Source: Bacteroidota bacterium (lineage in GTDB: Bacteria > Bacteroidota > Bacteroidia > Chitinophagales > Chitinophagaceae). From it: a DNA stretch of 64,000 nucleotides. The translations under genes and the position numbers were made by a program. The DNA is taken from positions 1,596 through 65,595 of the forward strand of contig JABDFW010000008.1 in the NCBI GenBank assembly GCA_013286305.1. Direction: 5' to 3'. Under the pieces are notes generated by a model. It was not told the origin of the DNA. It saw nothing but the letters and a program-made list of their open reading frames with translations, and ran no database searches. Positions 40,540-63,206 of the stretch are shown in pieces (position 1 is the stretch's first letter; each line of letters opens with the position of its first letter).

Positions 40540-40574
40540 AACCGTGCCCCTTTTTTTAATGACGGGCTGCATAA

Positions 40575-45658: not shown

Positions 45659-45719
45659 AAAATATGGTCAGTGAGTCATTGGTCAATAAGTCATTAAGTT
45701 AAACAATCTGTAGTCTTGC

Positions 45720-47084
45720 TCAGCCCCGGCCGATCAACCACTCTTTCAACGATTCAAAATTTGCATCCACTAAAATACTTTTCTTTTCCCTGGCAGCAAG
45801 GTATTGTACGCTTTCCGGGAAAGGGATTTTGGTTCCGGTTGCCTGCTCTACTACTTCCGGGAATTTAACGGGATGAGCTGTTTCAAGAAAAATGCCCTTA
45901 CCATTCGGATGGGTTTTCAAATACTCACTTAAGGCATAGTATCCCACTGCGCCATGGGGGTCAAGCATATAGCCGCATTTTGTATATACTTCTTTTATTG
46001 TTTGAGCGGTAGTTGCATCGTCAACACTATAGCTGCTTAACATTGATTTGAGGTTACCGGTGTTTTGGTCAAACATCTCCATGATACGGACAAAATTGCT
46101 GGGGTTGCCCACATCCATTGCATTTGAAATGGTTGCCACCGCTGGTTTCGGAGTATAATTGCCACTTTCCAGAAACTGCGGCACTACATCATTTGCATTG
46201 CAGGCTGCAATAAAATGTTGCACCGGCAAACCTGATCTATACGCTAACATACCTGCACAAATATTGCCGAAGTTGCCACTCGGTACTGATATAACAGGCG
46301 GCTGCCCGTCAGCCCATTGCTGGTATGCGAAGAAATAATATAACTGCTGCGGCAACCAGCGTGCCACATTGATAGAGTTGGCAGAAGTAAGCTGTAATTT
46401 TTGACTGAGATCGTTATCCATGAAAGCCTGCTTTACCATAGCCTGGCAATCATCAAAGGTTCCGGTTACTTCCAGTGCGGCAATGTTTTGCCCAAGGGTG
46501 GTTAACTGAAGTTCCTGTATAGGGCTTACCTTACCCGAGGGATATAATATCACAACATCAACCCCTTCCACACCGAGAAAACCATTGGCAACTGCACCGC
46601 CCGTATCGCCGGAAGTTGCTACAAGCACTGTTGTATGATGGTTGCTGTTGCGGTTAAAATAACCAAGACAACGGCTCATAAATCTTGCGCCCACATCTTT
46701 AAATGCTAAAGTAGGGCCGTGAAACAGTTCAAGCGAATAAACAGCATCATTTAGTTTAACCAATGGAAACTCAAAGTTGATCGTTTCACTGATGATATGC
46801 TGCAATACATTTCCAGGGATGCTATCACCCACGTAAGGCTGCATAACTGTAACGCCTATTTCTTCTTTTGAATAGTCCCCGATATTCTCAATAAAACCTT
46901 TCGGTAACAAAGGAATAAGCTGAGGGAAATATAAACCTTTATCAGGCGCCTGCCCCTTTACCGTGGCTTCTGCGAATGTTACCGCCGGGGATTGATGGTT
47001 GAGAGAATAGTAAGCCCCTACTCGTGCCCCCGCCCCCTGAAGGGGGGAAAGCAAAAACCGTTTATTAAAATTTATACTTACCAT
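45720..47084 (-). CDS. thrC: Threonine synthase
   Basis: The conserved N-terminus YYSLNHQSPAVTFAEATVKGQAPDKGLYFP and the PLP Lys region (HGPTLAFKDVG) are present. The annotated ATG puts a GC-rich repeat copy (SPLQGAGARVG) into the N-terminus, so the true start is uncertain. Confidence 0.92.
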   Translation of the reverse strand: MVSINFNKRFLLSPLQGAGARVGAYYSLNHQSPAVTFAEATVKGQAPDKGLYFPQLIPLLPKGFIENIGDYSKEEIGVTVMQPYVGDSIPGNVLQHIISETINFEFPLVKLNDAVYSLELFHGPTLAFKDVGARFMSRCLGYFNRNSNHHTTVLVATSGDTGGAVANGFLGVEGVDVVILYPSGKVSPIQELQLTTLGQNIAALEVTGTFDDCQAMVKQAFMDNDLSQKLQLTSANSINVARWLPQQLYYFFAYQQWADGQPPVISVPSGNFGNICAGMLAYRSGLPVQHFIAACNANDVVPQFLESGNYTPKPAVATISNAMDVGNPSNFVRIMEMFDQNTGNLKSMLSSYSVDDATTAQTIKEVYTKCGYMLDPHGAVGYYALSEYLKTHPNGKGIFLETAHPVKFPEVVEQATGTKIPFPESVQYLAAREKKSILVDANFESLKEWLIGRG

Positions 47085-47133
47085 TTATTGAGATAATGTT
47101 GAGTTATATTAAACAACCCTTGGATTTGCTTCT

Positions 47134-48147
47134 TCACTCCCCTTTAGGCCCGCCCGTGCCGGTACGGACGGGGGCAGGGGGTACAACCTTCACGCCTTCC
47201 ATATTTATTGTTGTTACATGCGTTTGATACGCCACTCCTATTCTTTCATATACTTCTTTCATTACGACTTCAACAACCCTTGCCGTTTCCGCATCCCTAC
47301 TCAGCATAAAAATAGAAGGACCGGAACCTGAGATGCCACCACCCAATGCGCCTGCTTCTTTACAATTTTTCTTTACCTCGTCAAAACCGGGGATGAGGAT
47401 GCTTCGAATAGGTTCTATAATAACATCTTCAAGCGAGCGGCCAATAAGATCATAATCGCCTTTTATAAAACCTGCTACAAGGCCCGCAATATTGCCCCAT
47501 TGCTTAATAGCATCTTTTAATAATACCTGCTGTTTAAGTATTTGCCTCGCGTCAGAGGTACGCACTTCTATCTGCGGGTGAACAACGGTTACATGCAGCG
47601 GCGGCGCATCAATTTGCACTATATCCAGCGGGTGAATAGAACGAATTAATGTGACACCACCGTAGATACAGGGTGCAATATTATCGGCGTGCTTAACCCC
47701 GCTGGCAACCTTTTCGCCAAACATTGCAAAGCGCACAAGGTCTTCCTTACTAAAACGGTTACCAAGTAAATGATTTGCTGCAACAACTGAACCTGCGGCG
47801 CTTGCGGCACTTGAACCAATACCGCTGCCCGGCTTGATGTGTTTTTTGCTGTATAATGTAAAGCCTTTTACGTCGGGGGTTTCCTCAAGCAGGGCAAGCA
47901 AGGCAGCACCGCTGACATTTTTTTCTGCCACGGTAGGCAAATCGAACTCGTCCTGGTTGATGATGTGCACGCCCGGCTCATCACTTAACTGCAAAGTGAT
48001 CTCATCATTCGGGCCGTTCAGTGCAAAGCCGAGTATATCAAACCCGCAGACAACGTTTGCAACGGTCGCGGGAGAGAGAATGGAGATGCCCCCTACCCCC
48101 GTCCGTACCGGCACGGGCGGGCCTAAAGGGGGGTTGTGTAACTGCAT
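47134..48147 (-). CDS. thrB: Homoserine kinase (candidate start at the internal ATG 48147; the ORF is open up to 48561)
   Basis: GHMP kinase motifs (SPATVANVVCGFDILGFAL, KPGSGIGSSAASAAG). The only ATG between the DUF559 part and the kinase core gives MQLHNPPLGPPVPVRTGVGGISILSPATV. Confidence 0.85.
   Translation of the reverse strand: MQLHNPPLGPPVPVRTGVGGISILSPATVANVVCGFDILGFALNGPNDEITLQLSDEPGVHIINQDEFDLPTVAEKNVSGAALLALLEETPDVKGFTLYSKKHIKPGSGIGSSAASAAGSVVAANHLLGNRFSKEDLVRFAMFGEKVASGVKHADNIAPCIYGGVTLIRSIHPLDIVQIDAPPLHVTVVHPQIEVRTSDARQILKQQVLLKDAIKQWGNIAGLVAGFIKGDYDLIGRSLEDVIIEPIRSILIPGFDEVKKNCKEAGALGGGISGSGPSIFMLSRDAETARVVEVVMKEVYERIGVAYQTHVTTINMEGVKVVPPAPVRTGTGGPKGE
47139..47181. repeat. GC-rich hairpin repeat, long form, at the thrB 3' end
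   Basis: CCCCTTTAGGCCCGCCCGTGCCGGTACGGACGGGGGCAGGGGG is the reverse complement (42/43) of the copy at 48089-48133. It is translated as the thrB C-terminal tail PPAPVRTGTGGPKGE. Confidence 0.85.
48089..48133. repeat. GC-rich hairpin repeat, long form, between the DUF559 and thrB portions
   Basis: CCCCCTACCCCCGTCCGTACCGGCACGGGCGGGCCTAAAGGGGGG is the inverted partner of 47139-47181. It is translated in frame as PPLGPPVPVRTGVGG. Confidence 0.85.
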
Positions 48148-48561
48148 AAGTTTCTTTTGAATAGTTGAAAGAACAGTTTCCAATTTTCCTATTATTTCTT
48201 CATTTTTAAATCGAATAACAGTTAGACCGAAATCCCGCAAATCATCTTCACGTTGTATATCATTGCTTTTTACATCTTCACGTTCGTGAATATTCCCGTC
48301 AATTTCGATTACCAATTTAAGTTTGTGACAGTAAAAATCCGCAACATATAAAGAAATCGGATGTTGTCTTCTAAATTTGAATCCCCAATCATTCGTCTTT
48401 AAATAATTCCATATCAATTCTTCTGCAAAAGTCATCCTGTTTCTTAATTGTTCTGCTTTTTTAAATATCAGAGGATGCGCTCCATAATGCATATCCCAAT
48501 TCTTTTGGGAATTATCTTCGCCAGGATGATATTGAACTATATTATCGAAATTTAATCTCAC
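48148..48561 (-). CDS. DUF559 (Vsr-like/PD-(D/E)XK) endonuclease-domain ORF without its own stop codon, reading in frame into thrB
   Basis: MRLNFDNIVQYHPGEDNSQKNWDMHYGAHPLIFKKAEQLRNRMTFAEELIWNYLK...FKFRRQHPISLYVADFYCHKLKLVIEIDGNIHE...DFGLTVIRFKNEEI matches the DUF559 pattern (FRRQ..., DF.C..., IE.DG..H, RF.N.E.). Confidence 0.8.
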
Positions 48562-48594
48562 CGCTGTTTAATTTACTTAACAAGTTGACTTTTT

Positions 48595-48702
48595 CTCTCC
48601 TCTCCCTTTAGGGTTGGGGCTTTGGCTTTTCTCTCCTCTCCCTTTAGGGTTGGGGCTTTGGCTTTTCTCCCTTCTCCCTTTAGGGCCGGGGCTTCGGCTT
48701 TT
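48595..48702. repeat. Three tandem 36-bp GC-rich repeat units abutting the thrA stop codon
   Basis: CTCTCCTCTCCCTTTAGGGTTGGGGCTTTGGCTTTT appears twice exactly (48595-48630, 48631-48666), followed by the diverged third copy CTCCCTTCTCCCTTTAGGGCCGGGGCTTCGGCTTTT (48667-48702). Confidence 0.9.
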
Positions 48703-51190
48703 ATACCGTTGCCACCCTTATTATATCTGCAAATACACCGCTTGCTGTAACATCTGCACCCGCGCCCGCTCCCTTTACCACCAGTGGCTGTTCAGGATAA
48801 CGCTGTGTGTAAAAGAGCACGATATTATCCTTACCATAAAGATGATAAAAATCGCTGTTTGCCGGAACATGCTGCAACCCAACCTGTGCTTTACCATCTG
48901 CATAACTGGCAACAAATTTAAGCTTACAATTTTCCGCACCGGCAGACTTATATAGCGCTTTAAAATGATCTTCGTGCTTTGCCATTTCTTTATAAAAATC
49001 GGCTACATCACCTTCAAAGCAACTGGCAGGCAAAAAACTATTGTTGGCAATATCATTCATTTCAATCTTTTCACCGGCCTCACGCGCGAGTATCATTATT
49101 TTACGCATTACATCGGTGCCGCCAAGATCGAGGCGCGGGTCTGGTTCTGTGTAACCTTCATCCTGGGCTTGTTTTACAACTTCTGCAAAAGGCCTGGTGC
49201 CATCATAATTATTAAAAACAAAATTAAGCGTGCCGGATAAAACGGCTTGTATCTTATTTACCTTATCACCACTTCTTCTAAGATCATTTAAAGTACCTAT
49301 TACAGGTAACCCTGCCCCAACATTTGTTTCAAACAGGAAGAGTGCATTGTACTCATTTGCCAGCGCCTTTAAATGGTTATAGTTTTGGTAAGAAGATGAG
49401 GCAGCTATTTTATTGCACGCCACTACTGAAACAGCTTTTGACAATAACCTGTCATATACAGTAGCAACTTCTGCGTTGGCTGTTACATCTACAAAAACTG
49501 AGTTACGCAGGTTTTTATTTATCACCGTTTCAACAAATTCGTCAAGGTTATTGTCCTGTGCATTTAGCAACAGTTCCTTCCAGTTGGCAAGATCTATCGC
49601 ATTACCATTACCAACAAACAACATTTTTTTGCTGTTAGATATGCCGGTTACCCGCACCTGCAGGTTAAGGTGTTCCAATAAAAATTGCTGTTGCTGTTTT
49701 AGCTGCCCGAGCAATTTGCTGCCCACATTGCCTGCGCCTACAATAAATATATTTAGCTGTTTATACGCTGTTTCAAAAAATGCTTCGTGCAAAACGTTTA
49801 CACCTTTCTTTACATCGTTTGCAGAGATAACAGCAGAGATATTTCTTTCAGATGATCCCTGTGCTATAGCCCGCACATTAATGCCATTTCTTCCCAAAGC
49901 ATCAAACATTCTTCCACTTATACCCGGGTGGCTTTTCATTTTATCACCAACAAGCGCAATGATGGAAAGGCCCTGTTCTATTTTTAAAGGCTCTACCCGG
50001 CCTTGCGCTATTTCTATTTCAAATGTTTTGTCAACTGATTCTGTTGCCCGTGCAACATCGGCGCTATTTACGCCTACGCAAATAGAATGCTCTGAGGAAC
50101 TTTGTGTTATCAGTATTACATTAATGTTTTCATGCGCCAATGCTTCAAATAATCTTTTTGAAAAGCCCGGGATACCTACCATACCGCTACCCTCAAGGCT
50201 TAGCAATGCAATGTTATTGATACTGGATATGCCCGTGATGATACCTGAGCCCCCATCCCCCCGAACTGAATTCGGGGCAGGCTCTAAAGGAGTGTGAAGT
50301 ATAATGTTTTCACCCATTACCGTACCGGCTTCATTTGGCGCAAATGTGTTTTTTATCCAGGTGGGTATCTGTTTTCGCATTACCGGCTGAATGGTTGGGG
50401 GATAAATCACTTTAGCGCCAAAATGCGATAATTCCATTGCCTCCTGGTAAGAAATTTGGCTAATGGTTTTTGCGTTGGGTACCCAGCGCGGGTCTGCTGT
50501 CATCATACCTGTAACATCTGTCCATATTTCAAGGCACGATGCATTTACAGCCGCCGCAAAAATAGCAGCCGTATAATCAGAGCCGCCCCGGCCCAACGTG
50601 GTTATGTGGCCATGATCATCACTGGCGATAAAACCGGGGGCCAAAAAAATACCTTTTCCGGATGACGTTATCCTGTAAGAAATAAGATCGTTGGTAATAC
50701 TGAAATTAACAGCGGCAAATCCGTAATGGCTGTTGGTTTTTATAACAGCCCTTGAATCAATCCAATCGTGATCCACACCGGCAGACAGCATATAAGCTGA
50801 AATAATTTTAGACGACAGCAATTCCCCAAAACTTACAATGCGGTCTATAATGCGGGACGACAGTTCTTCCAGGTAAAATATGCTGTTGCATATTTCTTCC
50901 AGTTCGTTGCAGTGTTTTTTTATCATGCTTAAACAACTGCTTTGGTGTGTTACCGGCAATAAGGCCCTGGCGGTATCAAGATGCTTTTTTTCTAATTGCT
51001 GCAATACTTCTTTATATACTTCATCATTTTTCTCTGCTAAACTGCCGGCTTTAAGCAGTTGGTCTGTTACGCCGCCTAAAGCAGATACAACAACTACACT
51101 GGGTTCAGTATTGGTTTTAATTATACTAACTACCTTTTGAATATTTTCAGCATTTGCTACCGAAGAACCGCCAAATTTTAAAACTTTCAT
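48701..51190 (-). CDS. thrA: Bifunctional aspartokinase / homoserine dehydrogenase
   Basis: 829 aa: N-terminal MKVLKFGGSSVANAENI, aspartokinase, ACT domains, and homoserine dehydrogenase (FIVGAGNVGSKLL... through the C-terminus). Confidence 0.95.
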   Translation of the reverse strand: MKVLKFGGSSVANAENIQKVVSIIKTNTEPSVVVVSALGGVTDQLLKAGSLAEKNDEVYKEVLQQLEKKHLDTARALLPVTHQSSCLSMIKKHCNELEEICNSIFYLEELSSRIIDRIVSFGELLSSKIISAYMLSAGVDHDWIDSRAVIKTNSHYGFAAVNFSITNDLISYRITSSGKGIFLAPGFIASDDHGHITTLGRGGSDYTAAIFAAAVNASCLEIWTDVTGMMTADPRWVPNAKTISQISYQEAMELSHFGAKVIYPPTIQPVMRKQIPTWIKNTFAPNEAGTVMGENIILHTPLEPAPNSVRGDGGSGIITGISSINNIALLSLEGSGMVGIPGFSKRLFEALAHENINVILITQSSSEHSICVGVNSADVARATESVDKTFEIEIAQGRVEPLKIEQGLSIIALVGDKMKSHPGISGRMFDALGRNGINVRAIAQGSSERNISAVISANDVKKGVNVLHEAFFETAYKQLNIFIVGAGNVGSKLLGQLKQQQQFLLEHLNLQVRVTGISNSKKMLFVGNGNAIDLANWKELLLNAQDNNLDEFVETVINKNLRNSVFVDVTANAEVATVYDRLLSKAVSVVACNKIAASSSYQNYNHLKALANEYNALFLFETNVGAGLPVIGTLNDLRRSGDKVNKIQAVLSGTLNFVFNNYDGTRPFAEVVKQAQDEGYTEPDPRLDLGGTDVMRKIMILAREAGEKIEMNDIANNSFLPASCFEGDVADFYKEMAKHEDHFKALYKSAGAENCKLKFVASYADGKAQVGLQHVPANSDFYHLYGKDNIVLFYTQRYPEQPLVVKGAGAGADVTASGVFADIIRVATV
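50247..50294. repeat. GC-rich hairpin repeat inserted in frame inside thrA
   Basis: GAGCCCCCATCCCCCCGAACTGAATTCGGGGCAGGCTCTAAAGGAGTG is translated (minus strand) as HTPLEPAPNSVRGDGGSG, in the linker before the ACT region (GISSINNIALLSLEG). Confidence 0.7.
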
Positions 51191-51346
51191 AGTATGCTTT
51201 TCCTTAGAGGAAATATTTATATAATAATGTATGGGTTACTAACTTTTGTTTCTCCTGGTATCTTTAGGAATGGGAATAAAATATTCTTTTTTTGTTTTCA
51301 CTCCTGAAAAAGGAGGCCAGGTGGCGATATGATACTGTTTAACCCT

Positions 51347-51430
51347 TTACAGGGTTGTTGTAATAGTAGTAGTGGCGGGTGTCCCGGGAGTAGAGGAAGA
51401 AGAAATGATATGTTGATATAAGCTTACCAT
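51347..51430 (-). promoter_or_regulatory. thrL: Candidate thr operon leader peptide (27 codons, Thr-rich)
   Basis: The minus-strand ORF MVSLYQHIISSSSTPGTPATTTITTTL-stop lies 156 nt upstream of the thrA ATG. Eight of 27 codons are Thr, including TTTITTT. The stop codon sits inside the AACCCT-gtaa-AGGGTT hairpin. Confidence 0.6.
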
Positions 51431-51508
51431 TTGTAACTGAACCCGAAGATACGTTAAGATACTTTATAACAAGTGTTAGTTTATTAAGAAATTTTTATTG
51501 CTACCTCA

Positions 51509-52765
51509 TTACACCAAATACCCAAACAACGTATCATCTTTATTTAGCTCCGTAAAGTCAATATTATACTGCCGCATTTTTTCAACCAGGTCGTCGTAAT
51601 CATGCCTTGATTGCAATTCTATCCCCACCAATGCAGGCCCTGATTCTTTATTTGTTTTTTGTATATACTCAAAACGGGTAATATCGTCTTTGGGGCCAAG
51701 CACAAGGTTTAAAAATTCCCGCAAGGCACCGGGCCGTTGTGCAAAGTTCACCAGGAAATAATGCTTCAATCCCTCATACTGCAGGGAACGCTCTTTTATT
51801 TCAGGCATACGGTCAATATCATTGTTGCTTCCGCTTACAATGCAAACCACTGTTTTACCTTTTATCAATTCTGCATAATCATCAAGCGCAGCGATAGATA
51901 ATGCGCCGGCAGGCTCAACCACTATTGCATCTTCATTGTATAATTTCAAAATGGTGGAACATACTTTCCCTTCGGGTACAAGGCGCACGTCGTCTAACAC
52001 TTCTTTGCAAATAGCAAATGTAATGTCACCTGTACGTTTTACTGCGGCACCATCAACAAACCTGTCTATACTATTCAATGTTACCGGGTAGCCCGCTTTG
52101 AATGCTTCCAGCATACTTGGAGCGCCTTCAGGTTCAAGCCCAATTATTTTTGTTGAAGAAGAAACGGTTTTAAAATAAGTGCCAACACCTGATGCCAGGC
52201 CACCGCCACCGATGGGTACAAATACGTAGTCAATGTTGGTTAAATCCTCAAGTATCTCTACGGCAACCGTTCCCTGCCCTTCAATGATCCGGTAATCATC
52301 AAATGGCGGAATAAAGGCCATGTTGTGTTCTTCCGTATATTTTTTTGCAGCAACAGCGCAATCATCAAAGGTGTCGCCAATCAATACTATTTCAATACTA
52401 TCTTCTCCAAACATCATAGTTTGCCTAACCTTTTGTTTGGGGGTAATAATAGGCATGAAAATAACGCCTTTAATACCCAGCTTCCTGCAACTATAGGCGA
52501 AGCCCTGGGCATGATTGCCCGCACTGGCGGTAGTTACGCCATTCTTCAATTTTTCTGGTGGCAATGTACTTATCATATTATAAGCGCCGCGTAATTTGTA
52601 GGAGCGTACAACCTGCAGGTCTTCCCTTTTCAAATAAATATTTGCGCTATACCTCCGTGAAAGATTATGATTAAGCTGAAGCGGTGTTCAGTTAACTATA
52701 TCCTTTAGACGGTTGTGTGCGGCTATAAAATCCAAATGATATGTTGTGTCGGTAATTTTATTCAT
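51509..52765 (-). CDS. ilvA: Threonine ammonia-lyase (biosynthetic threonine dehydratase) interrupted by an in-frame TGA at codon 26; possible pseudogene or sequencing error
   Basis: The ATG at 52765 gives [62 protein letters not shown]..., where TGA is the plus-strand TCA at 52688-52690. The ORF-track version (51509..52633, TTG start) lacks the conserved TPLQ N-terminus. Confidence 0.85.
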
Positions 52766-52866
52766 AAAACCAGGCAGAGAAAAATATTTTATCTATAAAG
52801 TGTTTTACAAAGTCAGCAGGTTAATAAACAATGAGTTTAGGTATCACAGATTTTATAAATGCCTTA

Positions 52867-53127
52867 TCAGCATTTATTTTTAAAGCCATACTTAGGCCTT
52901 CTTTCTTCGTGATATTCTTTTTTGAAATCAAAATCATCAGTAAAGGTTAATTCAGGTTTTGGCATGCTGTCAAGTATATCAAGCAGAGATTGTTCTTCCT
53001 TATTTCTTGTGAGTATCCTGAAATGATCTTCCACTAATTCAGATAAGCTTAACCCTTTTTTTGCAGCATACATTTTTGCCTTTTTTAGCAATGTTGCTTC
53101 AATGGTAATATACAATATCGCTTTCAT
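52867..53127 (-). CDS. DUF6364-like small protein (antitoxin-like, RHH-type N-terminus), orphan
   Basis: The 86-aa MKAILYITIEATLLKKAKMYAAKKGLSLSELVEDHFRILT pattern matches the Bacteroidota DUF6364 family. No adjacent toxin ORF. Confidence 0.65.
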   Translation of the reverse strand: MKAILYITIEATLLKKAKMYAAKKGLSLSELVEDHFRILTRNKEEQSLLDILDSMPKPELTFTDDFDFKKEYHEERRPKYGFKNKC

Positions 53128-53164
53128 TTCTAAAATTCGTTGAGTTACACACTTATCTTAATTA

Positions 53165-53407
53165 TTAACCAAATAAATCTTTTAACACCTGCTCTTTTGA
53201 TATAGCAAAATGTACTGATACCAGCGTTATTATTCCATTGAGTGTGCCTATTTTAATTGGATCGTGGTTAGGTATTGCTAAATGATGTTCTCCTTCCCGT
53301 TGAGTTGTAACCATTATATGACTTCCATTTTGACGGATTACCTGATAGCCATATACCTTCAGGGCTTTAATTACATCCTTTCCGGATATATCCCGTGGCA
53401 TTTTCAT
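53165..53407 (-). CDS. hicA: HicA-family (YcfA-like) mRNA interferase toxin
   Basis: 80 aa: MPRDISGKDVIKALKVYGYQVIRQNGSHIMV matches the HicA signature (..GKE.IK.L...G....RQ.GSH). It overlaps the upstream hicB by 4 nt. Confidence 0.85.
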   Translation of the reverse strand: MKMPRDISGKDVIKALKVYGYQVIRQNGSHIMVTTQREGEHHLAIPNHDPIKIGTLNGIITLVSVHFAISKEQVLKDLFG

Positions 53408-53613
53408 AAGGCCATAATTTCATCCCGCACAAAGTGCAAATGCGCAAATATTGGTGTATTTTCGGCCTTATTAAAATAACAATCTATCCCCCCCTTTATA
53501 TTTTCTTTTAACTCCTCTATTGTTTCCCCTTCAGCAAAAATTCCTAACCCTGCGGCCTGTGCATAATAGCCCCCTTCATCTGCTTCATGTACTAAAAAAG
53601 TAATTTCTTTCAT
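53404..53613 (-). CDS. hicB: HicB-family antitoxin (UPF0150-like domain only)
   Basis: 69 aa: FLVHEADEGGYYAQAAGLGIFAEGETIEELKENIKGGIDCYF matches the HicB N-terminal fold pattern. Translationally coupled to hicA. Confidence 0.8.
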   Translation of the reverse strand: MKEITFLVHEADEGGYYAQAAGLGIFAEGETIEELKENIKGGIDCYFNKAENTPIFAHLHFVRDEIMAL

Positions 53614-53657
53614 ACCCTAAAGTTAATTTATTTTCAGCAACTCCTGTTTTCCGCATA

Positions 53658-54362: not shown

Positions 54363-54513
54363 TAAATTTATTTTACTTTAAAACAAATGCTAAGGAAACA
54401 AAGGGATGGCAACTTTTAAAAACTGCCATCCCTTGTATAATAAAAAAGTATCCTATTCTCATAGCCTCCACTCTTTTACTCACTACTACTCCCTTCAGGG
54501 CCGGGGCATCCTC

Positions 54514-55560: not shown

Positions 55561-55790
55561 GTTTGTTGTTTTGTACGCCCCACCCTAAAGGAAGTTCCGG
55601 GGCTGGTTTTTAAATATTACTTGTTGTTGGTTATAGAAATTTTTTGTTTGCCTGCTGTATATCCTTATGCTGCTTTACTTGTGTCACACTCTTGTACGTT
55701 CTTTTTTTTATTGAGCATTGAACATTGAGTATTGAATATTTCAACATTGATTATTTCGATATTACTTTTTTTGTACAATCATCTATTATA

Positions 55791-56477
55791 TCATTTAATT
55801 GTATCAAGGTTCTGCTTAATAATATCTGTTATCAGTTCCAGCCGTTCCTGTTGAATTTCCTTTCTTGCGTCTATTACCTTATCAACAATTTCTTTCTCCG
55901 CTGTTTTGGGTGAGCCCGCATTAAATGGTGGTGACGGGTTATATTCCATCATCAACTGAATTTCCTTAGCTGCATTTTCGCCTGCCAATTCAGCAACTAC
56001 AAATAAACCAAAATCTATTCCGGCGGTTACACCTCCTCCTGTTATCCTGTTCCTGTCCATCACTACCCTTTCTTCCAACACCTCCACATCAAACAGGCTC
56101 AGCAGGCCTAACGACAGCCAATGTGTTGTGGCTTTATACCCATTCAACAAACCTGCTGCAGCCAACACTAAAGCGCCTGTGCAAACAGATGTAACATATT
56201 TTGCATGCACTGCCTGTTGCTGTAAATAATGCAACAACTTTTTATTTTGCATTGCGCCAAACACTCCTTTACCACCGGGAACAAATAATATATCAACCTG
56301 CGGCGAATCGTCAAATGTTATATCAGGTGTAAGTACCAGTCCTGCATCACTTGTGACCGGTGCTAAACTTTCAGCCACCAAAAGAATTTGTACACCTGGC
56401 AATCTACCAAATACATCATAAGGGCCCGTAAGGTCCAGTTGAGTTAATTCCGGAAAAATCACCATACCTATTGTCAT
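55791..56477 (-). CDS. DJ-1/PfpI family protein (class-I glutamine amidotransferase-like fold)
   Basis: Start MTIGMVIFPELTQLDLTGP at 56477, with a nucleophile-elbow Cys (VTSVCTGALVLA). Upstream codons in the ORF track are a translated GC-rich repeat. Confidence 0.85.
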   Translation of the reverse strand: MTIGMVIFPELTQLDLTGPYDVFGRLPGVQILLVAESLAPVTSDAGLVLTPDITFDDSPQVDILFVPGGKGVFGAMQNKKLLHYLQQQAVHAKYVTSVCTGALVLAAAGLLNGYKATTHWLSLGLLSLFDVEVLEERVVMDRNRITGGGVTAGIDFGLFVVAELAGENAAKEIQLMMEYNPSPPFNAGSPKTAEKEIVDKVIDARKEIQQERLELITDIIKQNLDTIK

Positions 56478-56485
56478 AGACCATG

Positions 56486-56529
56486 CCCCTATCCCCGTCC
56501 GGCCAGTCATCCGGGCGGGCCTAAAGGGG
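56486..56529. repeat. GC-rich hairpin repeat, long form (ilvN / DJ-1 junction)
   Basis: CCCCTATCCCCGTCCGGCCAGTCATCCGGGCGGGCCTAAAGGGG. Confidence 0.8.
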
Positions 56530-56598
56530 TATTTTAATTTATTACAACTGTTCTCAACTATCACAATCAGACGGAGACCGTCAGATCGTATCGAGAGT

Positions 56599-57186
56599 TT
56601 ACATACTAAATACTTCTTCCTGCTTATTCAAAAATTCGTTCTCCACCACTTCTTCGCCCGGTTCCCCCTGTTCAAATTCTTTTAATTTTTCATGAAACCC
56701 ATTACTTGTTTTTATAATAGCCACTCTCGCACTGCGTACAAACTCTATTAAACCATAAGGCTCCAGTGCTTTGATCAAACCTTCTGTTTCTTCGCGGTGG
56801 CCTGATGTTTCAAACACCGTATAATCCTTGCGGATCAATACTGCTCTTGCCCCAAACTGGCGCAGCAATCTTTCTACTTTTACTTTTTCTGCAATTACAT
56901 CGGTAGGCACTTTATACAGAGCAAGTTCCTGCCAAACAATTTCTTCGTTGGTATTATAATAAGCTTTTAAAACTTCAACCTGCTTTTCAATTTGGCGGCA
57001 AAGCTTACGCACAACCTCTTCTGTTTCGTTTATTACAATAGTAAAACGGTGAACGCTTTCAATTTCCGAAGGTGATGTATTTAAACTTTCTATATTGATC
57101 TTACGCCGCGAAAAAATGATCGCGATACGGTTTAGCAAACCAACCTGGTTTTCTGTATAAACTGTAACAGTATATTCTTGTTTCAT
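56599..57186 (-). CDS. ilvN: Acetolactate synthase small (regulatory) subunit
   Basis: 195 aa with an ACT domain (TVTVYTENQVGLLNRIAIIFSRRKINIESL) plus the ALS_ss_C region. Confidence 0.93.
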   Translation of the reverse strand: MKQEYTVTVYTENQVGLLNRIAIIFSRRKINIESLNTSPSEIESVHRFTIVINETEEVVRKLCRQIEKQVEVLKAYYNTNEEIVWQELALYKVPTDVIAEKVKVERLLRQFGARAVLIRKDYTVFETSGHREETEGLIKALEPYGLIEFVRSARVAIIKTSNGFHEKLKEFEQGEPGEEVVENEFLNKQEEVFSM

Positions 57187-57276
57187 AATCCCTATCCCCT
57201 AAAGCGGGGCTTTTTAAACCACCCTATCTTAACGGGGAGTTGTTTGTTAATAAATTTTATAATAATGCCTCTTCTT

Positions 57277-57313
57277 CCCCTTTAGGGCCGCCTGTGCCGG
57301 TACGGACGGGGGC
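57277..57313. repeat. GC-rich hairpin repeat, long form (ilvB / ilvN junction)
   Basis: CCCCTTTAGGGCCGCCTGTGCCGGTACGGACGGGGGC matches the copy at 47139-47175 at 35/37 positions. A short-form copy, CCCTATCCCCTAAAGCGGGGC, is at 57190-57210. Confidence 0.85.
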
Positions 57314-57323
57314 ATCTGTTCTC

Positions 57324-59066
57324 CTACTTCAATCTTATCTCTCCTACACCACAACCCTGCGGCACCATCGGGAACACATTATTCTCTTTACCCACCATTA
57401 CTTCCAGCAGGTAAGAGCCCTCATGTTCAAGCATTTCCTTTAATGTTGATCTCAAATCTTTTCTGTCGCTGATAGATTTGCCTGCAATACCATACGCTTT
57501 AGCGATCATTACAAAATCGGGGCTTTGAATATCTACAAAAGAATATCTCCGGGAATTAAACAGTTCCTGCCATTGGCGCACCATGCCCAAAAACCTGTTA
57601 TTCAGAATAATGATCTTAACGTCAGCACCAAACTGCATAATAGTGCCAAGTTCCTGCAAGGTCATTTGAAAACCACCATCGCCAATAATAGCAACCACCG
57701 TTCTTTCCGGCGCTCCATATTTTGCCCCTATTGCTGCAGGCAATGCAAAACCCATGGTGCCTAAGCCCCCGGAAGTAACATTACTTTTTGACTGTGTAAA
57801 TTTTGCATAACGGCAGGCTACCATCTGGTGCTGGCCTACATCTGTTACAATAACAGCATCACCTTTGGTAAATTCGTTCAAGGCATCTATTACTTCGCCC
57901 ATGCTCATCTCTTGCTTAGAAGGATGAAGTTCATCATAGATCACTATTTCATTTTCTTTTACCGTTGCTTCATGAAAACGCTGTAGCCATGCGGTATGTT
58001 CTTTCTTTTCAATCAGTTCAGTTAACAGGGGCAATGTTTCCTTGCAATCGCCCCATACAGGCGCTAATGCCTTTACATTTTTATCAATCTCAGCAGGGTC
58101 AATATCCAGGTGAATAACTTTTGCCTGCTTTGCATATTTATCCAAACGGCCTGTAACACGGTCGTCAAAACGCATACCCACCGCTATCAATACATCACAT
58201 TCATTGGTAAGCACATTTGGGCCATAATTGCCGTGCATGCCAAGCATACCCACATTTAGAGGATGGCCGGTTTCTAATGCACTTAAGCCAAGAATAGTCC
58301 ATGCGGCCGGTAAACCGCCTTTTTCAATAAATGCCTTTAATTCATTTTCTGCTTCGCCGAGAATCACACCCTGGCCAAATATTACAAAAGGCCTTTCCGC
58401 TTCATTAATAAGCTTTGCTGCCTGGGCAATATATTCTTTACGCACGATTGGCTTGGGGCGGTAGCTGCGTACTTTTTTACATTTAGTGTAGCCTTCATAA
58501 TCAAATTTTTGCACTTGCGCATTTTTGGTAATATCAATCAGCACCGGGCCGGGGCGGCCGCTCTTGGCAATATAGAATGCCTTTGCAAGTGCAGCAGGTA
58601 TTTCTGTAGCGTCTGTTACCTGGTAATTCCATTTGGTAACGGGTGTAGTTATATTTATAACATCAGTTTCCTGGAAAGCATCTGTACCCAGCAGGTGCGC
58701 AAACACCTGGCCTGTTATACATACCAGCGGAGTACTGTCAATTTGTGCATCAGCCAAACCCGTAACTAAATTTGTTGCACCGGGGCCGCTGGTTGCAAAT
58801 ACAACACCCACTTTACCGGATGTTCGCGCAAAACCCTGCGCGGCATGTATGGCGCCCTGCTCGTGGCGTACCAATATATGTTCCAGTTTATCCTGGTAAT
58901 CGTACAATGCATCATAAATAGGCATAATGGCGCCGCCGGGATAACCGAAAATAGTTTTTACACCTTCTGCTATCATGGCTTCCAGTACTGCCTCGCTCCC
59001 GGTAATGCTAACTGTTTTTTTTGCAGGTACCGAAATTCTTTCTTCTATTATTTCAAGGATTTCCAT
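57324..59066 (-). CDS. ilvB: Acetolactate synthase large (catalytic) subunit
   Basis: 580 aa with ThDP motifs (IFGYPGGAIMPIYDAL, GLGTMGFALPAAIGA, IIGDGGFQM). Confidence 0.97.
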   Translation of the reverse strand: MEILEIIEERISVPAKKTVSITGSEAVLEAMIAEGVKTIFGYPGGAIMPIYDALYDYQDKLEHILVRHEQGAIHAAQGFARTSGKVGVVFATSGPGATNLVTGLADAQIDSTPLVCITGQVFAHLLGTDAFQETDVINITTPVTKWNYQVTDATEIPAALAKAFYIAKSGRPGPVLIDITKNAQVQKFDYEGYTKCKKVRSYRPKPIVRKEYIAQAAKLINEAERPFVIFGQGVILGEAENELKAFIEKGGLPAAWTILGLSALETGHPLNVGMLGMHGNYGPNVLTNECDVLIAVGMRFDDRVTGRLDKYAKQAKVIHLDIDPAEIDKNVKALAPVWGDCKETLPLLTELIEKKEHTAWLQRFHEATVKENEIVIYDELHPSKQEMSMGEVIDALNEFTKGDAVIVTDVGQHQMVACRYAKFTQSKSNVTSGGLGTMGFALPAAIGAKYGAPERTVVAIIGDGGFQMTLQELGTIMQFGADVKIIILNNRFLGMVRQWQELFNSRRYSFVDIQSPDFVMIAKAYGIAGKSISDRKDLRSTLKEMLEHEGSYLLEVMVGKENNVFPMVPQGCGVGEIRLK

Positions 59067-59120
59067 AATCCAATTTTTATTTTTTAACGATCAATATTCA
59101 GCTTGAATGTTAATTGCAGT

Positions 59121-60809
59121 TCAACCCATTTCATCCGTCACACAACCTTCAGCGGCATTCTTAACATTCTTTGCATATTTATATAAAACCCCATTTGTTG
59201 CTTTTAATGCAGGCTGTTTCCAGGCTGCCTTCCGCTTAGCTATTTCCTCATCACTCACTTTAAGCGTCATCTTTTTGTGTACTACATCAATTTCAATTAC
59301 ATCATCATCTTTTACCAGGGCTATCAATCCTCCCTCAAACGCTTCCGGAGTGATGTGCCCGACGACAAACCCATGCGTACCACCACTAAACCTTCCATCC
59401 GTTATTAGTGCTACCGATTTACCAAGCCCCGCGCCTATAATAGCTCCGGTAGGCTTTAGCATTTCGGGCATACCAGGTGCTCCTTTAGGGCCGATGTGCC
59501 TTATTACCACCACGTCACCCGCATGAACACGTCCGCTCTGAATACCTTTTATAAGATCGTGCTCGCCGTCAAACACTCTTGCAGAGCCTTCAAAACGTTC
59601 GCCTTCTTTTCCGCTTATTTTCGCAACACTGCCGCCTTCTGCAAGGTTGCCATACAATATTTGCAAATGGCCTGTTTTTTTCAGCGGGTTCTCCAGCGGA
59701 TGTATAATATCCTGTGTGTTAAAATCAAGGTCAGGTGCATCGGCCAGGTTTTCTGCAACGGTCTTACCCGTCGCTGTCAAACATTCGCCGTGCAAAAGCC
59801 CGTTGTTTAATAAATATTTCATAACGGCAGGCAACCCTCCTTTTGCATGCAGGTCTTGCATCAAATATTTGCCGCTTGGTTTAAAATCTGCAAGTACCGG
59901 TATTCTGTCGCTGATGACCTGGAAATCATCCTGCGACAATGGCACTCCTACACTTTTTGCCATTGCAATTAAATGCAATACGGCATTGGTACTGCCGCCA
60001 AGAACCATTACAACTGTAATTGCATTTTCAAATGCTTTACGTGTCATAATGTCCCTGGGCTTAATATCTTTTTCCAATAACAATTTTATTGCCTTGCCAA
60101 TCGCAGCACATTCTTTTTGTTTGTCTTCGCTCAATGCCGGGTTAGATGATGAATTAGGCAGGCTCATACCAAGCGCTTCAATGGCACTGGCCATCGTATT
60201 TGCCGTGTACATGCCTCCACAGGCGCCAGCACCGGGACAAGAGTGGCGAACAATATTTTTAAAATCAGCTTCATCCAGGTTACCTGCGATCTTCTGGCCA
60301 AGCGCTTCAAAAGCCGAGACAATATTCAGGTCCTGGCCGTTGTAATGCCCGGGGGCTATGGTACCGCCATATAACATAATAGAAGGGCGGTTAAGCCTGC
60401 CCATAGCCATAATAGAGCCGGGCATATTTTTATCACAGCCGGGTATTGTAATTAAGGCATCATAATATTGGCCACCGGCGTTTGTTTCAATACTGTCAGC
60501 GATCAGGTCGCGGCTAACCAGGCTAAAACGCATACCGTCAGTACCCATGCTTATACCATCACTTACACCGATGGTATAAAAACGCAAACCAAGCAAACCT
60601 TCTGTTGCATTAACGCTTTTTTTCACATCTGTCGCAAGATCGTTCAGGTGCATATTACAGGGGTTGCCATCCCAGCCCATACTTGCAATGCCCACTTGTG
60701 CTTTATTAAAATCTTCTTCAGTAAAGCCTATAGCATAATACATTGCCTGCGCCGCAGGTTGCGTTGGATCCTGTGTTAACGTTTTACTGTACTTGTTAAG
60801 TTCCGCCAT
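59121..60809 (-). CDS. ilvD: Dihydroxy-acid dehydratase
   Basis: The true start is [29 protein letters not shown] (ATG 60809..60807), with the CDKNMPG and [15 protein letters not shown] motifs. The 40 upstream codons include a translated repeat. Confidence 0.95.
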
Positions 60810-60951
60810 ACCCCTATCCCCTGAAGGGGGATTTGAAACTTGATTACTGCCATTTTGCTGGTTCATGATTAAATCTTTGTGTTTATTATTCCGGCTTTTG
60901 TTCTTTACTAAAAATTTGTTGCGTCGCACACTTCAACAGATTGTTTATTAT

Positions 60952-61365
60952 TCAACTTTTATTTATCAACTCGTATGATTGTTTCATCCATTTCTTTAAC
61001 TGTTCATCTATATCTTTCTCACCGTCAACCTTTACAATATGCACCACCCTGTGTTTGGATGTTTGTAAAAATTTTGCAACAGGCGGCACATCTTCCAGGT
61101 GATCTAAAAAAAACTCAATCTCCAGGTGGCTCTTCTTAACCTTTACTGCCAGGAAGGTACTTTTTGTTTTAAAAAAAATCACATCCGGCGCAACTGCTTC
61201 TTCCCTGTACCTGCCAAAAGTTTTGACTATTGCCTCTATTTCCTCAAATAATCCTTTCAATAATGGCGGCCGCTTTATAAAAAAGCTTTCCTTATCAACA
61301 AGCTTACATCCGTGTATTTGCTCAGCTTTTTTAAAGCTACGTCCGCATTTTGGGCATATCCACAT
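60952..61365 (-). CDS. Small Zn-ribbon plus DUF5655-like protein
   Basis: 137 aa: MWICPKCGRSFKKAEQIHGC, followed by a domain resembling DUF5655/DUF4287-type proteins. It starts 18 nt after the attenuator terminator. Confidence 0.6.
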   Translation of the reverse strand: MWICPKCGRSFKKAEQIHGCKLVDKESFFIKRPPLLKGLFEEIEAIVKTFGRYREEAVAPDVIFFKTKSTFLAVKVKKSHLEIEFFLDHLEDVPPVAKFLQTSKHRVVHIVKVDGEKDIDEQLKKWMKQSYELINKS

Positions 61366-61382
61366 AATAAATGAGTAATAAA

Positions 61383-61410
61383 AAACCCGCCTCTCTGTGG
61401 AGGCGGGTTT
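61383..61410 (-). terminator. Attenuator terminator of the ilv leader
   Basis: The minus strand reads AAACCCGCCTC-cacaga-GAGGCGGGTTTTTTATT: an 11-bp GC-rich stem plus a U tract, 25 nt after the leader stop codon. Confidence 0.8.
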
Positions 61411-61434
61411 GCTATAATTTGTTTATTGTTATAA

Positions 61435-61533
61435 CTAACTTATACCTCCATGCAGGGCAGGAATAATAATGACAACGACTACCACAACTATTGTGATATT
61501 GTTTACAATATTATTTATCCTGTTTCTAAGCAT
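61435..61533 (-). promoter_or_regulatory. ilvL: ilv operon leader peptide (32 codons, Val/Ile-rich)
   Basis: The minus-strand ORF is MLRNRINNIVNNITIVVVVVVIIIPALHGGIS-stop. It has a run of 6 Val and 3 Ile, plus more Ile and Val upstream, and is followed by a canonical terminator. Confidence 0.8.
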
Positions 61534-61550
61534 AGCGGCTTTATATACTA

Positions 61551-61581
61551 CGAATATATGAAAGCCTGTTCAAACTGCAAA
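61551..61581 (-). promoter_or_regulatory. Possible Bacteroidota-type promoter (-33 TTTG / -7 TATATTCG) for the ilv leader
   Basis: The minus strand reads cTTTGcagtttgaacaggctttcaTATATTCG, with a 19-nt spacer. The -7 box has one mismatch to TAnnTTTG. About 18 nt upstream of the leader ATG. Confidence 0.3.
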
Positions 61582-61586
61582 GATCT

Positions 61587-62092
61587 GACCACGATTTTGA
61601 CCTGATTTTTCTGATTGCCCTGACGGGCCTTTTACTTATAATCAGGCTAAGCCCCCGGCAACGGCTTATACTTTTTATTAAATAACCTTTTCCACTCAAG
61701 GCTGCCCGCACCAAAATTTATTAACATACCTACCTCAAAATTATAAGCCTCCAAATAATTAAGCCCCTGGTTGAGGTGGCTATTTTCTAACTTACTTAAA
61801 GCCTTTATTTCAACTGTTATTTTTCCTTCAACTAAAAAATCAACCCTTCGGTCACCAATTAATTTATCGCGATAATAGATTTGCACACTGGCTTCCTTTT
61901 TAAAATCAATCCCCATCAATTCAAACTCTATTGCCAAAGCTCTCTGACAAATAATTTCCTGGAAGCCATTACCCAATGCACCATGTACTGTCATGCATGC
62001 TTTAATTATTTTCTCCGTTATTTCACTATACTTGTACTCCATATTCAATAAGCGTTCAGGGCAATCAGAAAAATCAGGTCAAAATCGTGGTC
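61587..62092. mobile_element. 506-bp cassette: GxxExxY gene bounded by perfect 37-bp terminal inverted repeats
   Basis: GACCACGATTTTGACCTGATTTTTCTGATTGCCCTGA (61587-61623) is the exact reverse complement of TCAGGGCAATCAGAAAAATCAGGTCAAAATCGTGGTC (62056-62092). Confidence 0.7.
61647..62048 (-). CDS. GxxExxY family protein (PD-(D/E)XK nuclease-like)
   Basis: 133 aa: ...HGALGNGFQEIICQRALAIEFELMGIDF...RVDFLVEGKITVEIKAL... The G-x-x-E-x-x-(Y/C) and D...E.K pattern is typical of the GxxExxY family. Confidence 0.85.
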   Translation of the reverse strand: MNMEYKYSEITEKIIKACMTVHGALGNGFQEIICQRALAIEFELMGIDFKKEASVQIYYRDKLIGDRRVDFLVEGKITVEIKALSKLENSHLNQGLNYLEAYNFEVGMLINFGAGSLEWKRLFNKKYKPLPGA

Positions 62093-63206
62093 ATATGATC
62101 GTCGATTTTCTCAACTCTATATTTCCCTTATTCACTTCGCCGGTTATTTTGTTGCTTACAAAATCTGCTATCAGCTCCCCGATAGTGGAAGTGAAATAAA
62201 AATTTATGCTGTCAATATCTTTTGTTACAAAACTGTTCTGCAAGGTCCAGTTAACACCATCACGCACGTGTGCAGCTTCGTTCGGCATTCCTAAATAATC
62301 GAGCATCATGGCTGTAGATAAAATGGAGCCCAACGGATTGGCAATGTCCTTGCCTGCTGCCTGCGGGTATGAGCCATGAATGGGCTCAAACAATGCAGTT
62401 CCGGTTCCTATAGAAGCAGATGGCAATAATCCCAGCGAACCACTTAATACACTTGCCTCGTCACTGATAATATCACCAAACATATTTTCCGTAAGTATTA
62501 CGTCAAACTGTTTAGGGTTAAGTATAATCTGCATGGCGGCATTATCAACAAACATGTAGTCAACTAATACATCGTTATATTGCCCCGCTATTTCCTGAAC
62601 TACTTTTCGCCATAAGCGCGATGTTTCCAATACATTGGCTTTATCAACCAATGTCAATTTCCTTTTTCTCTGTTGTGCATATTTAAAAGCAAGGTGTGCT
62701 ATTCTTTCAATTTCGGGACGGGTATAAACGCAATCGTCACTTGCCCGGGTTTTGTCCTCACTCAACTCCTTCTTACCAAAATAAATTCCACCTGTCAGCT
62801 CGCGAAATATAATAAAATCAACCCCTTCCATTTGTTTCGCTTTAAGCGGCGATAAATGCTGCAACGATGGGTATGTAGTTATCGGGCGTATATTGGCAAA
62901 CAACTGCAGGCTTTTACGCAATTTAAGCAGCCCTTGCTCGGGCCTTACTTTCGCTGTAGGGTCATTATCATATTTGGGATGCCCTATTGCGCCAAACAAT
63001 ACCGCATCGCTATTTAAACAACTCTCAATTGTTTCATCAGGCAAGGGGTTGCCGGTTTTGTCAATGGCATCTGCCCCCATCAGGCAATAGGTATAATTAA
63101 ATGTATGGCCATATTGATGCCCCACTGCCTCTAATACTTTAATTGACTGGCGTGTAACTTCAGGCCCTATGCCATCGCCCAATATTACCGTTATATTCTT
63201 TTCCAT
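62091..63206 (-). CDS. leuB: 3-isopropylmalate dehydrogenase
   Basis: 371 aa with ITVILGDGIGPEV, NMFGDIISDEASVLSGSLGLLPSAS and EPIHGSYPQAAGKDIANP. The stop codon lies at the edge of the cassette TIR. Confidence 0.97.
   Translation of the reverse strand: MEKNITVILGDGIGPEVTRQSIKVLEAVGHQYGHTFNYTYCLMGADAIDKTGNPLPDETIESCLNSDAVLFGAIGHPKYDNDPTAKVRPEQGLLKLRKSLQLFANIRPITTYPSLQHLSPLKAKQMEGVDFIIFRELTGGIYFGKKELSEDKTRASDDCVYTRPEIERIAHLAFKYAQQRKRKLTLVDKANVLETSRLWRKVVQEIAGQYNDVLVDYMFVDNAAMQIILNPKQFDVILTENMFGDIISDEASVLSGSLGLLPSASIGTGTALFEPIHGSYPQAAGKDIANPLGSILSTAMMLDYLGMPNEAAHVRDGVNWTLQNSFVTKDIDSINFYFTSTIGELIADFVSNKITGEVNKGNIELRKSTII

Follow-up and report, generated by a model that had tools for sequence, protein, structure and literature searches.

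A probable lineage-specific family of small polar palindromic repeats at gene ends in the Chitinophagaceae

The repetitive extragenic palindromes (REPs) of Proteobacteria, with the bacterial interspersed mosaic elements (BIMEs) and REPINs that contain them and the REP-associated tyrosine transposases (RAYTs), are short, GC-rich, imperfect palindromes that occur at many scattered sites, chiefly gene 3′ ends and operon junctions, and leave no target-site duplication. Their singletons may be remnants of dimers, and inverted dimers consist of unlike Y and Z REPs (PMC3733652). Rickettsia palindromic elements (RPEs), from an alphaproteobacterial endosymbiont, lie in frame in unrelated housekeeping genes, where they add a conserved peptide at tolerated positions, and are polymorphic among relatives (PMC10969869). 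A further class of CGTC-tagged REPs (Di Nocera et al. 2013), including some Bacteroidetes families as well as RPE-4/6, is an orphan class without a dedicated transposase and occurs predominantly as head-to-head dimers and intragenic units (PMC3733652). Here we describe a GC-rich palindromic repeat in a 64,000-nucleotide stretch of a Chitinophagaceae genome (Bacteroidota bacterium, GCA_013286305.1, contig JABDFW010000008.1; hereafter the window), with copies in a leu/ilv/thr biosynthetic gene cluster and elsewhere. Our preferred reading, to which we give a probability of about 0.6, is that it belongs to a lineage-specific family of small interspersed palindromic repeats, REP/BIME-like in organisation and RPE-like in the way it is read into proteins. 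Literature searches on Chitinophagaceae repeats found no description of this family, which we regard as new, and which combines two behaviours so far known mainly from Proteobacteria in one small element of a free-living Bacteroidota lineage.

An original prediction, made from the DNA letters, had proposed a single GC-rich repeat family with REP/BIME-like organisation at nearly every cistron boundary of the cluster. A GC-rich copy is present at every position that it gave, and its view of the organisation is borne out by inverted doublets of unlike partners, by copies at junctions and by the lack of target-site duplications; its estimate of coverage was too high, as a family copy occupies 8 of the 16 junctions. 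The core CCYTWAAGGGG, with at most one mismatch, matches the window 27 times, compared with 4.5 ± 2.5 times in shuffled sequences (0 of 100 shuffles reached 27). This 6-fold enrichment, together with E-values down to 1e-11 from a covariance model (R1) that was built from 52 long copies and used to score and orient the copies in the window, rules out an origin by chance or low complexity. In total, 15 sites were found in the 64-kb window (Table 1), including an intragenic copy in thrA that had escaped the original prediction.

The copies form one family with two nested forms, a short one of ~21 nt, which on the strand termed R reads R-CCCC(C)-nnn-CCCC-TRAA-GGGG, and a long one of 45–48 nt, which reads R-CCCC(C)-nnn-CC[CCCGTCCG-apex-CGGGCGGG]CC-TAAA-GGGG. 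The two differ by an inserted inner 8-bp hairpin (CCCGTCCG/CGGGCGGG, with a variable apex), which only the long form has; at a related locus, L081, the short form takes the very place before thrB that the long one takes in the window. The long form is predicted to fold in two tiers, with an outer CCCC/GGGG stem, an asymmetric internal loop (2–4 nt opposite CCTAAA) and the inner stem, in which about 90% of long copies, read on the R strand, contain a T.G wobble. Both stems are conserved in the 52-copy alignment, and the predicted RNA folding energies of −8 to −28 kcal/mol for the family (−23 to −28 kcal/mol for long copies) indicate a stable hairpin of the kind expected for a short imperfect REP-like palindrome. 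At least three apex types occur (TACCGGCA, ACCGGGTCRTC and AACGAYGTTCAGT), and loci L027 and L057 differ in apex type at one and the same trpB site. The element is flanked only by (A/T)(R) on the left and an AGT-like sequence on the right; no conserved flank was found beyond about 4–7 nt, even within one genome, and no target-site duplication was detected, k-mer matches between the flanks being no more frequent than in shuffled pairings (k = 2–4, three left boundaries, eight right offsets).

This architecture differs from those of the described classes. Unlike in REPs and BIMEs, no unpaired GTAG or CGTC tag was found at the ends of family copies, and the hairpin is nested. The CGTC-tagged REPs share with the family the lack of a dedicated transposase, the inverted dimers and the intragenic units, but they have an unpaired terminal CGTC, stems of 8–9 bp that start with A-T pairs, loops of 4–5 nt and a CCA tail, whereas the CGTC of the present family lies inside the inner stem. 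Bacterial MITEs (miniature transposable elements with inverted repeats, e.g. Correia/NEMIS, ERIC, BOX) are likewise small, non-autonomous and co-transcribed, can form in-frame fusions and can alter the expression of their neighbours; however, they consist of terminal inverted repeats around a conserved core and generate target-site duplications, neither of which is seen here. A reading of the copies as intrinsic terminators was rejected, as no family copy is among the terminator-like sites of the window and none has a T tract.

The placement of the copies with respect to genes is strikingly polar. We name copies by their orientation on the sense strand of the neighbouring gene, F being the reverse complement of R, and call the CCCC-nnn-CCCC side of the element its tail. 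Over 124 copies from the window, the genome-scan loci and the thrB loci, considering open reading frames (ORFs) of at least 80 codons, ORFs end at or in the element 44 times from the tail side and once from the hairpin side, and depart from it 62 times on the tail side and 16 times on the hairpin side; the tail points toward the nearest gene end in about 106 cases versus 17. It does so at 15 of 15 sites in the window, including ligA/HAD and rpsD/rpoA outside the cluster, and stop codons lie mostly 0–4 nt from the tail (TAA-ACCCC, TAG-CCCCC). As a result of this polarity, on the mRNA a copy 3′ of a gene reads R and a copy 5′ of a gene reads F. The openness of reading frames cannot account for it, since two frames are open in both orientations. 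Such strict orientation toward a start or a stop sets the family apart from REPs and BIMEs, as does the apparent translation of many of its copies; that orientation tracks the nearest gene end, whichever end it is, is not predicted by current models of REP or MITE spread, for which the family offers a tractable case.

Copies also associate with each other. At spacings of 60–200 nt, 12 pairs have their tails outward and 2 have the opposite arrangement, usually joining one long and one short copy, so that inverted pairs at a characteristic short distance occur as in BIMEs and REPINs. Among copies classed as solo, 8 of 77 have a degenerate inverted partner 63–102 nt away on the hairpin side, compared with 0 in each of three control classes. 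Doublets are found for the most part between co-directional genes, with R following the stop of the first gene and F preceding the start of the second. For the thrB/thrC doublet a long-range R:F fold is predicted (−67.7 kcal/mol, z = −1.9), while no significant long-range fold is predicted for ilvB/ilvN. The spacers of doublets are unrelated between copies, even inside one genome, and an alignment of the empty locus L088 with L089, which carries a doublet and has flanking genes about 90% identical, suggests that the old spacer was kept between R and F; the doublet is therefore probably not one mobile unit. A larger mobile unit, comprising the ~40-nt leader found upstream of F copies or the doublet spacer, was considered and rejected: flanks are unrelated, leaders are alike in length only, and the old spacer seems to persist.

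Table 1 Copies of the repeat family and associated RNA signals in the window. Bit scores are from the covariance model of 52 long copies.
Feature	Coordinates	Strand	Context	Score (bits)
Short R copy	9262–9282	+	ligA sense strand; ligA ORF enters and stops at loop TAA; tail-outward doublet (ligA/HAD) with 9382–9402	23.1
Short F copy, partly decayed	9382–9402	−	HAD sense strand; abuts ATT AAA GCA GTC ATT TTT GAT (IKAVIFDLDGT)	16.7
Long F copy	33116–33163	+	5′ untranslated region of rpoA (minus strand); out of frame; 19 nt before rpoA ATG; rpoA keeps 27-nt A-rich untranslated spacer	41.3
Short R copy	33219–33239	−	begins right after rpsD TAG stop; doublet partner of 33116–33163	21.4
Short F copy with extra G tract	47014–47047	+	before thrC; in frame as SPLQGAGARVGA from ATG at 47084; model interval 47026–47046	14.5
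Long R copy	47138–47182	−	thrB 3′ end; thrB ORF continues through it (PPAPVRTGTGGPKGE) to TGA just past element; doublet with 47014–47047	63.9
Long F copy	48088–48134	+	before thrB; in frame as PPLGPPVPVRTGVGG, linking DUF559 ORF to thrB; 46-nt, 96% inverted repeat with 47136–47181, flanking thrB; model interval 48088–48132	63.8
Three tandem 36-nt units, each with short R copy (GCCCCRRCCCTAAAGGGAG)	48595–48702	−	directly after thrA stop	11.7 each (two units)
Intragenic long-type F copy	50249–50293	+	thrA sense strand; kinase–ACT linker; in-frame TPLEPAPNSVRGDGG	17.4
thr leader peptide, Thr/Ile-rich	51440–51290	−	upstream of thrA; ACC ACT ACT ACT ATT ACA ACA ACC CTG TAA = TTTITTTL*, then hairpins	
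Terminator	54434–54401		3′ of ilvC	
Short R copy	54490–54508	−	7 nt after ilvC stop; true terminator ~60 nt further	
Degenerate F-type copy (GCCCCGGAACTTCCTTTAGGGTGGGGC on sense strand)	55577–55606	+	17 nt before ilvC ATG; not detected by covariance model	
Long F copy	56485–56530	+	ends 8 nt before likely DJ-1/PfpI start (MTIGMVIFPE)	55.6
Short F copy	57190–57211	+	abuts ilvN ATG	
Long R copy	57276–57313	−	8 nt after ilvB stop; doublet with 57190–57211 across 66-nt spacer (ilvB/ilvN)	26.8
Short F copy	60810–60831	+	abuts native ilvD ATG	18
Intrinsic terminator, clean	61410–61383	−	after the VVVVVIIIPALHGG leader peptide	
ilv-type leader/attenuator	about 61520–61383	−	Val/Ile-rich leader peptide VVVVVIIIPALHGG; upstream of DUF5655/ilvD	

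Many copies appear to be read into proteins. Among 60 non-redundant F copies adjoining a gene, the frame of the gene is open through the element in 50, compared with 64 of 120 for the other frames, and is both open and preceded by an in-frame upstream ATG in 35, compared with 4 of 120; 40 of the 60 have no ATG within 21 nt past the element. The frame used is nearly always xCC CCT TTA GGG G, which encodes (S/N)PLGxGG in the short form and SPLGPPVPxRTGxGG in the long form. In the window, thrB, thrC and the HAD gene lack an ATG of their own after the element: the thrB N-terminal region reads …NPPLGPPVPVRTGVGG-ISILSPATVANV, and thrC reads MVSINFNKRFLLSPLQGAGARVGA-YYSLN where relatives have the native start MNYYSLN. 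At ilvD the native ATG is kept, and an extra in-frame ATG 56 nt upstream gives a 19-residue leader. The upstream ATG seldom lies less than 27 nt from the hairpin (mode 36–42 nt), and the leaders share no common nucleotide sequence. Shine-Dalgarno use is largely absent from translation initiation in Bacteroidota, and the distance between ATG and hairpin would fit a requirement for initiation in a stretch free of structure.

ORFs that meet an R copy end at the loop TAA (ligA), shortly beyond the copy (thrB …PPAPVRTGTGGPKGE*) or at a native stop that the copy adjoins. Internal in-frame copies were found in TrpA (L057; decayed in L025) and in a GltD/PreT-like protein (L032, L059). For the latter two loci we had considered a lost start codon of the KKVAIIGAGPAG gene; the copy is instead an internal linker insert in the GltD/PreT-like protein. 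The original prediction took several of the repeats to extend annotated ORFs artificially. The frame bias, the absence of a later ATG in thrB, thrC and HAD, and a peptide that outlives its hairpin in relatives (below) indicate that the extensions are most likely real, as far as reading frames can tell. Like RPEs, the copies thus lie in frame within housekeeping genes with a conserved peptide and are polymorphic among relatives; unlike RPEs, which are about 100–150 bp long, they measure 21–48 nt, are concentrated in linkers and at the outermost N- and C-terminal positions, and form extragenic REP-like doublets as well. For annotation, this places the start codons of such genes as thrB, thrC and HAD 5′ of the repeat, and gene callers that shorten or lengthen ORFs there would mis-annotate hundreds of genes in Chitinophagaceae metagenome-assembled genomes (MAGs).

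Turnover of the copies was followed in 80 metagenomic loci collected by their ThrB core (67–92% identity), a set that is free of ascertainment by the repeat. In distant relatives the thrA TAA is followed, after 6–20 nt, by ATG AAA xAA ATA AAA (native MKxIKVLS), whereas in many closer relatives the thrA stop is followed by an R copy and a spacer, then by an ATG with ~12 codons, an in-frame F copy and the thrB core. The thrA/thrB and thrB/thrC junctions are filled in some relatives and empty in others, with empty and filled states interleaved at 78–86% ThrB identity and an independent filled case at 73%. The hairpin before thrB differs by genome (CCCC/GGGG, CCTCCCC/GGGGAGG, CTCCCCC/GGGGGAG or TCTCTCCGCC/GGCGGAGAG). 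In L083, L085, L087 and L093 the hairpin has decayed but the peptide frame is kept (TPLGEGG/TTLSGDG in L083 and L087), as expected if it is translated. At the thrB 3′ end, short R copies stand at slightly shifted positions in some relatives and are missing in others, and the kinase–ACT linker of thrA carries APLGD(R/G)G in L086 and L103 and nothing in most relatives. Core biosynthetic enzymes thus gain and lose Gly/Pro-rich peptide segments over short evolutionary distances.

The family is not confined to the window. A scan of one genome per species for the exact 18-mer CGGGCGGGCCTAAAGGGG gave 77 loci, 69 of them in Bacteroidota MAGs, almost all from many species of Chitinophagaceae or Chitinophagales, and no cultured isolate was among these matches. 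The whole 45-nt consensus is present in most of the 69 loci; the 8 matches in other phyla are ascribed to chance, because the rest of the element is missing there. One MAG holds about 17 loci with the exact 18-mer, and an identical contig is present in a Logan assembly. A comparison of element conservation with flank divergence as a test for selection was dropped, the loci having been chosen by the exact 18-mer and the ABC genes being paralogues.

We then turn to candidate mobilisers. A RAYT-like gene, which the original prediction proposed to look for, exists in the lineage: L015 encodes a homologue of E. coli RayT (phmmer E = 3e-5; Pfam Y1_Tnp 22 bits, below the cut-off of 23) that belongs to a large family named RayT by JGI (3474 relatives). 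The gene is single-copy and syntenic, beside a fadB-like gene, in L015 and in five loci (L160–L164) of four relatives. However, in 6 of 6 Chitinophagaceae loci it is flanked in inverted orientation by a different palindrome, GTCTGACSG..CSGTCTGAC (L015 3360–4210; L160–L164 around 9900–10700), and in none of them by the CCCC/GGGG family, contrary to what would be expected of a cognate RAYT. This second REP (GTCTGACSG-nnn-CSGTCTGAC, with a T.T mismatch) is low-copy, with 25 matches in 1.2 Mb, of which 23 adjoin RAYT genes; its one copy in the window, at 56566–56586 just after the ilvN stop, is not a member of the CCCC/GGGG family. A weak resemblance between the second REP and the type-B inner hairpin (GTC.GACCGGG.CG) was unconvincing. 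No transposase, integrase or recombinase recurs near copies in the 69 loci, where housekeeping orthologues are the only recurring neighbours.

Copies have accumulated at the extreme ends of genes with the tail toward the gene, and tail-outward pairs often fill operon junctions; copies appear, vanish, change between the short and the long form and decay faster than the flanking genes diverge. Under the preferred reading, of a largely passenger-like repeat family, they would be co-transcribed with neighbouring genes. A downstream R copy would form a stable hairpin that lies at the stop codon or covers it, and would end any frame inside or just past itself; an upstream F copy would be read through by ribosomes starting from an ATG 27–48 nt upstream, adding (S/N)PLG[PPVPxRTG]xGG at the N-terminus or in an inter-domain linker. 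The elements may be largely selfish or neutral passengers that persist only at sites which tolerate a GC hairpin and a Gly/Pro-rich peptide, with a possible benefit from hairpin protection of cistron 3′ ends and from the uncoupling of adjoining cistrons. We suspect that they spread by gene conversion, or by a single-strand hairpin mechanism acting in trans.

Several points weigh against this reading. The analysis turned up no transposition event, transposase or donor copy, and the RAYT was rejected as mobiliser of the CCCC/GGGG family, given the different low-copy REP around its gene in six loci, which is also a departure from REPs and BIMEs. The strict polarity is unaccounted for by the selfish-insertion models tested, which were based on target site, reading frame, terminator and replication strand. 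Among ThrB proteins 80–92% identical, the 5′ end of thrB keeps its hairpin, which could point to functional selection instead. The sequence conservation of the scan loci is partly ascertainment by the exact 18-mer, gene boundaries outside the window were set by an ORF heuristic, not by annotation, and translation of the copies is suggested by their reading frames.

The copies might instead be primarily functional cis-acting RNA structures at cistron boundaries, which would protect 3′ ends and, as R:F duplexes, would be cut (e.g. by RNase III) or would isolate the downstream start, so that ilv and thr transcripts are processed or uncoupled. Their presence at half of the cluster junctions as well as at rpsD/rpoA and ligA/HAD argues for such a role, as do the reverse complementarity of R and F within one spacer, with its predicted thrB/thrC fold, the T.G wobble, the start codon held 27–48 nt from the hairpin, and the different hairpins (CCCC/GGGG, CCTCCCC/GGGGAGG, TCTCTCCGCC/GGCGGAGAG) at the same place before thrB; this variety may equally reflect genome-specific subfamilies and not compensatory evolution. 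We nevertheless consider the explanation rather unlikely, as both orientations relative to transcription occur and yield different RNAs (C.A in place of G.U), no significant long-range fold is predicted for the ilvB/ilvN doublet, many close relatives are empty or decayed at the same junctions, copies lie within coding regions too, and no Rfam 15 family matched the window at the gathering score. A bolder reading, which we hold to be distinctly unlikely, is a polar punctuation module placed by a mechanism that senses gene ends, with one face always toward the coding sequence: downstream copies would stop any frame and protect, upstream copies would shift initiation to an ATG ~12 codons upstream with the hairpin just outside the footprint of the initiating ribosome, and R:F duplexes would process or uncouple cistrons in a phylum without Shine-Dalgarno-guided initiation. 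If true, the family would be a mobile agent that remodels translation where the cistrons of an operon meet and that generates novel protein ends and fusions, DUF559-ThrB among them.

Tail-outward inverted pairs 60–150 nt apart, and the position of DUF559 between R and F in five related genomes, could also be explained if a cut-and-paste (DDE-type) transposon or MITE had the copies as its terminal inverted repeats, with doublets as internally deleted forms and DUF559 and others as cargo. This is very improbable, given the absence of a target-site duplication at any offset and of a conserved core (doublet spacers are unrelated within one genome), the apparent survival of the original spacer in the L088/L089 alignment, the lack of a recurring transposase and about two thirds of copies without a detectable partner. 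We give still less credence to copies as sites of site-specific recombination or homing (attC-like, dif-module-like or targets of small nucleases) that admit cassettes into operons, a view related to the landing pads for nuclease cassettes of the original prediction. The accessory genes DUF5655, DJ-1 and DUF559 do adjoin copies, the copies alternate in orientation through the cluster in the manner of dif modules, and DUF559 in L098 itself has a copy upstream. However, DUF559 lies between R and F solely at thrA/thrB (window, L081, L097, L098 and L109), a placement consistent with a single old insertion; elsewhere a homologue occurs in 2 of 69 independent long-form loci and is adjacent to a copy in neither, and DUF559 was rejected as a general partner enzyme. 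Most copies flank housekeeping genes (trpA/B, nuo, tsaD, hisS, rpoA) and lack a cassette in their vicinity, the PDDEXK_3, hicAB and DUF6364 genes of the window are not flanked by copies, the limited sample already points to no excess of accessory genes between copy pairs, and the alternating orientation, housekeeping flanks and lack of a recurring integrase or recombinase do not match an integron attC cassette array, whose sites share one orientation at cassette 3′ ends and have an integrase close by.

The 17.5-kb stretch that holds most copies comprises, all on the minus strand, leuB, PDDEXK_3 (GxxExxY), DUF5655, ilvD, ilvB, ilvN, DJ-1/PfpI and ilvC, followed by a 234-amino-acid ORF, a 69-amino-acid ORF, HicA, DUF6364, ilvA, thrA, a DUF559 ORF fused to thrB, and thrC; Pfam agrees in content and strand with what had been proposed. 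It is not a single operon, because an ilv-type leader/attenuator, a terminator 3′ of ilvC and a thr leader peptide 5′ of thrA lie inside it. DUF5655 is placed between the ilv-type attenuator and ilvD. The only Rfam matches at an E-value threshold are weak, Thr/Phe leader-like and located at 61370–61520, away from the repeat copies. The thr leader peptide with its hairpins looks like a thr-operon attenuator in a Bacteroidota genome. The DUF559 ORF has no stop of its own and runs through the long repeat into thrB, giving a 475-amino-acid ORF (48134–48561 / 47134–48087), an arrangement also present in L081 and L109; with a C6 run at the start of the repeat, a length change of 1 nt would terminate the DUF559 ORF at the loop TAG.

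Other repeats were also seen. The PD-(D/E)XK_3 (GxxExxY) gene is bracketed, from just after the leuB stop, by a 41-nt inverted repeat of 98% identity (61583–61623 and 62056–62096), which has no relation to the CCCC/GGGG family; gene and repeat may form a separate small mobile cassette. The motif TTGCGTCGCACACTT occurs upstream of ilvD (60894–60938) and at a second window site (41948–41992), as well as before thrC, downstream of thrB, in L080, L081, L096, L109 and L118; its role may be regulatory, or it may belong to a leader. Short oligomer repeats comprise AATGACTTATTGACC-type units and 8-nt periodic GACTTTCG-type units (40574–40689, 21898–21937, 45666–45696; 31135–31350, 13922–13969, 42624–42666), and similar intergenic repeats of 7–8-nt period are found in many related loci (e.g. 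L088, L112, L119, L122, L128). A cluster of further small GC hairpins at 21947–22135, including a 52-nt, 79% inverted repeat, lies upstream of a carA-like ORF at 22279 and may represent a related or a separate repeat family. Finally, genes lie on the plus strand to the left and on the minus strand to the right of about 29000–30000, with a peak of cumulative GC skew near 26 kb; this point of convergence could mark a replication terminus or reflect a mere composition effect of the transcribed strand.

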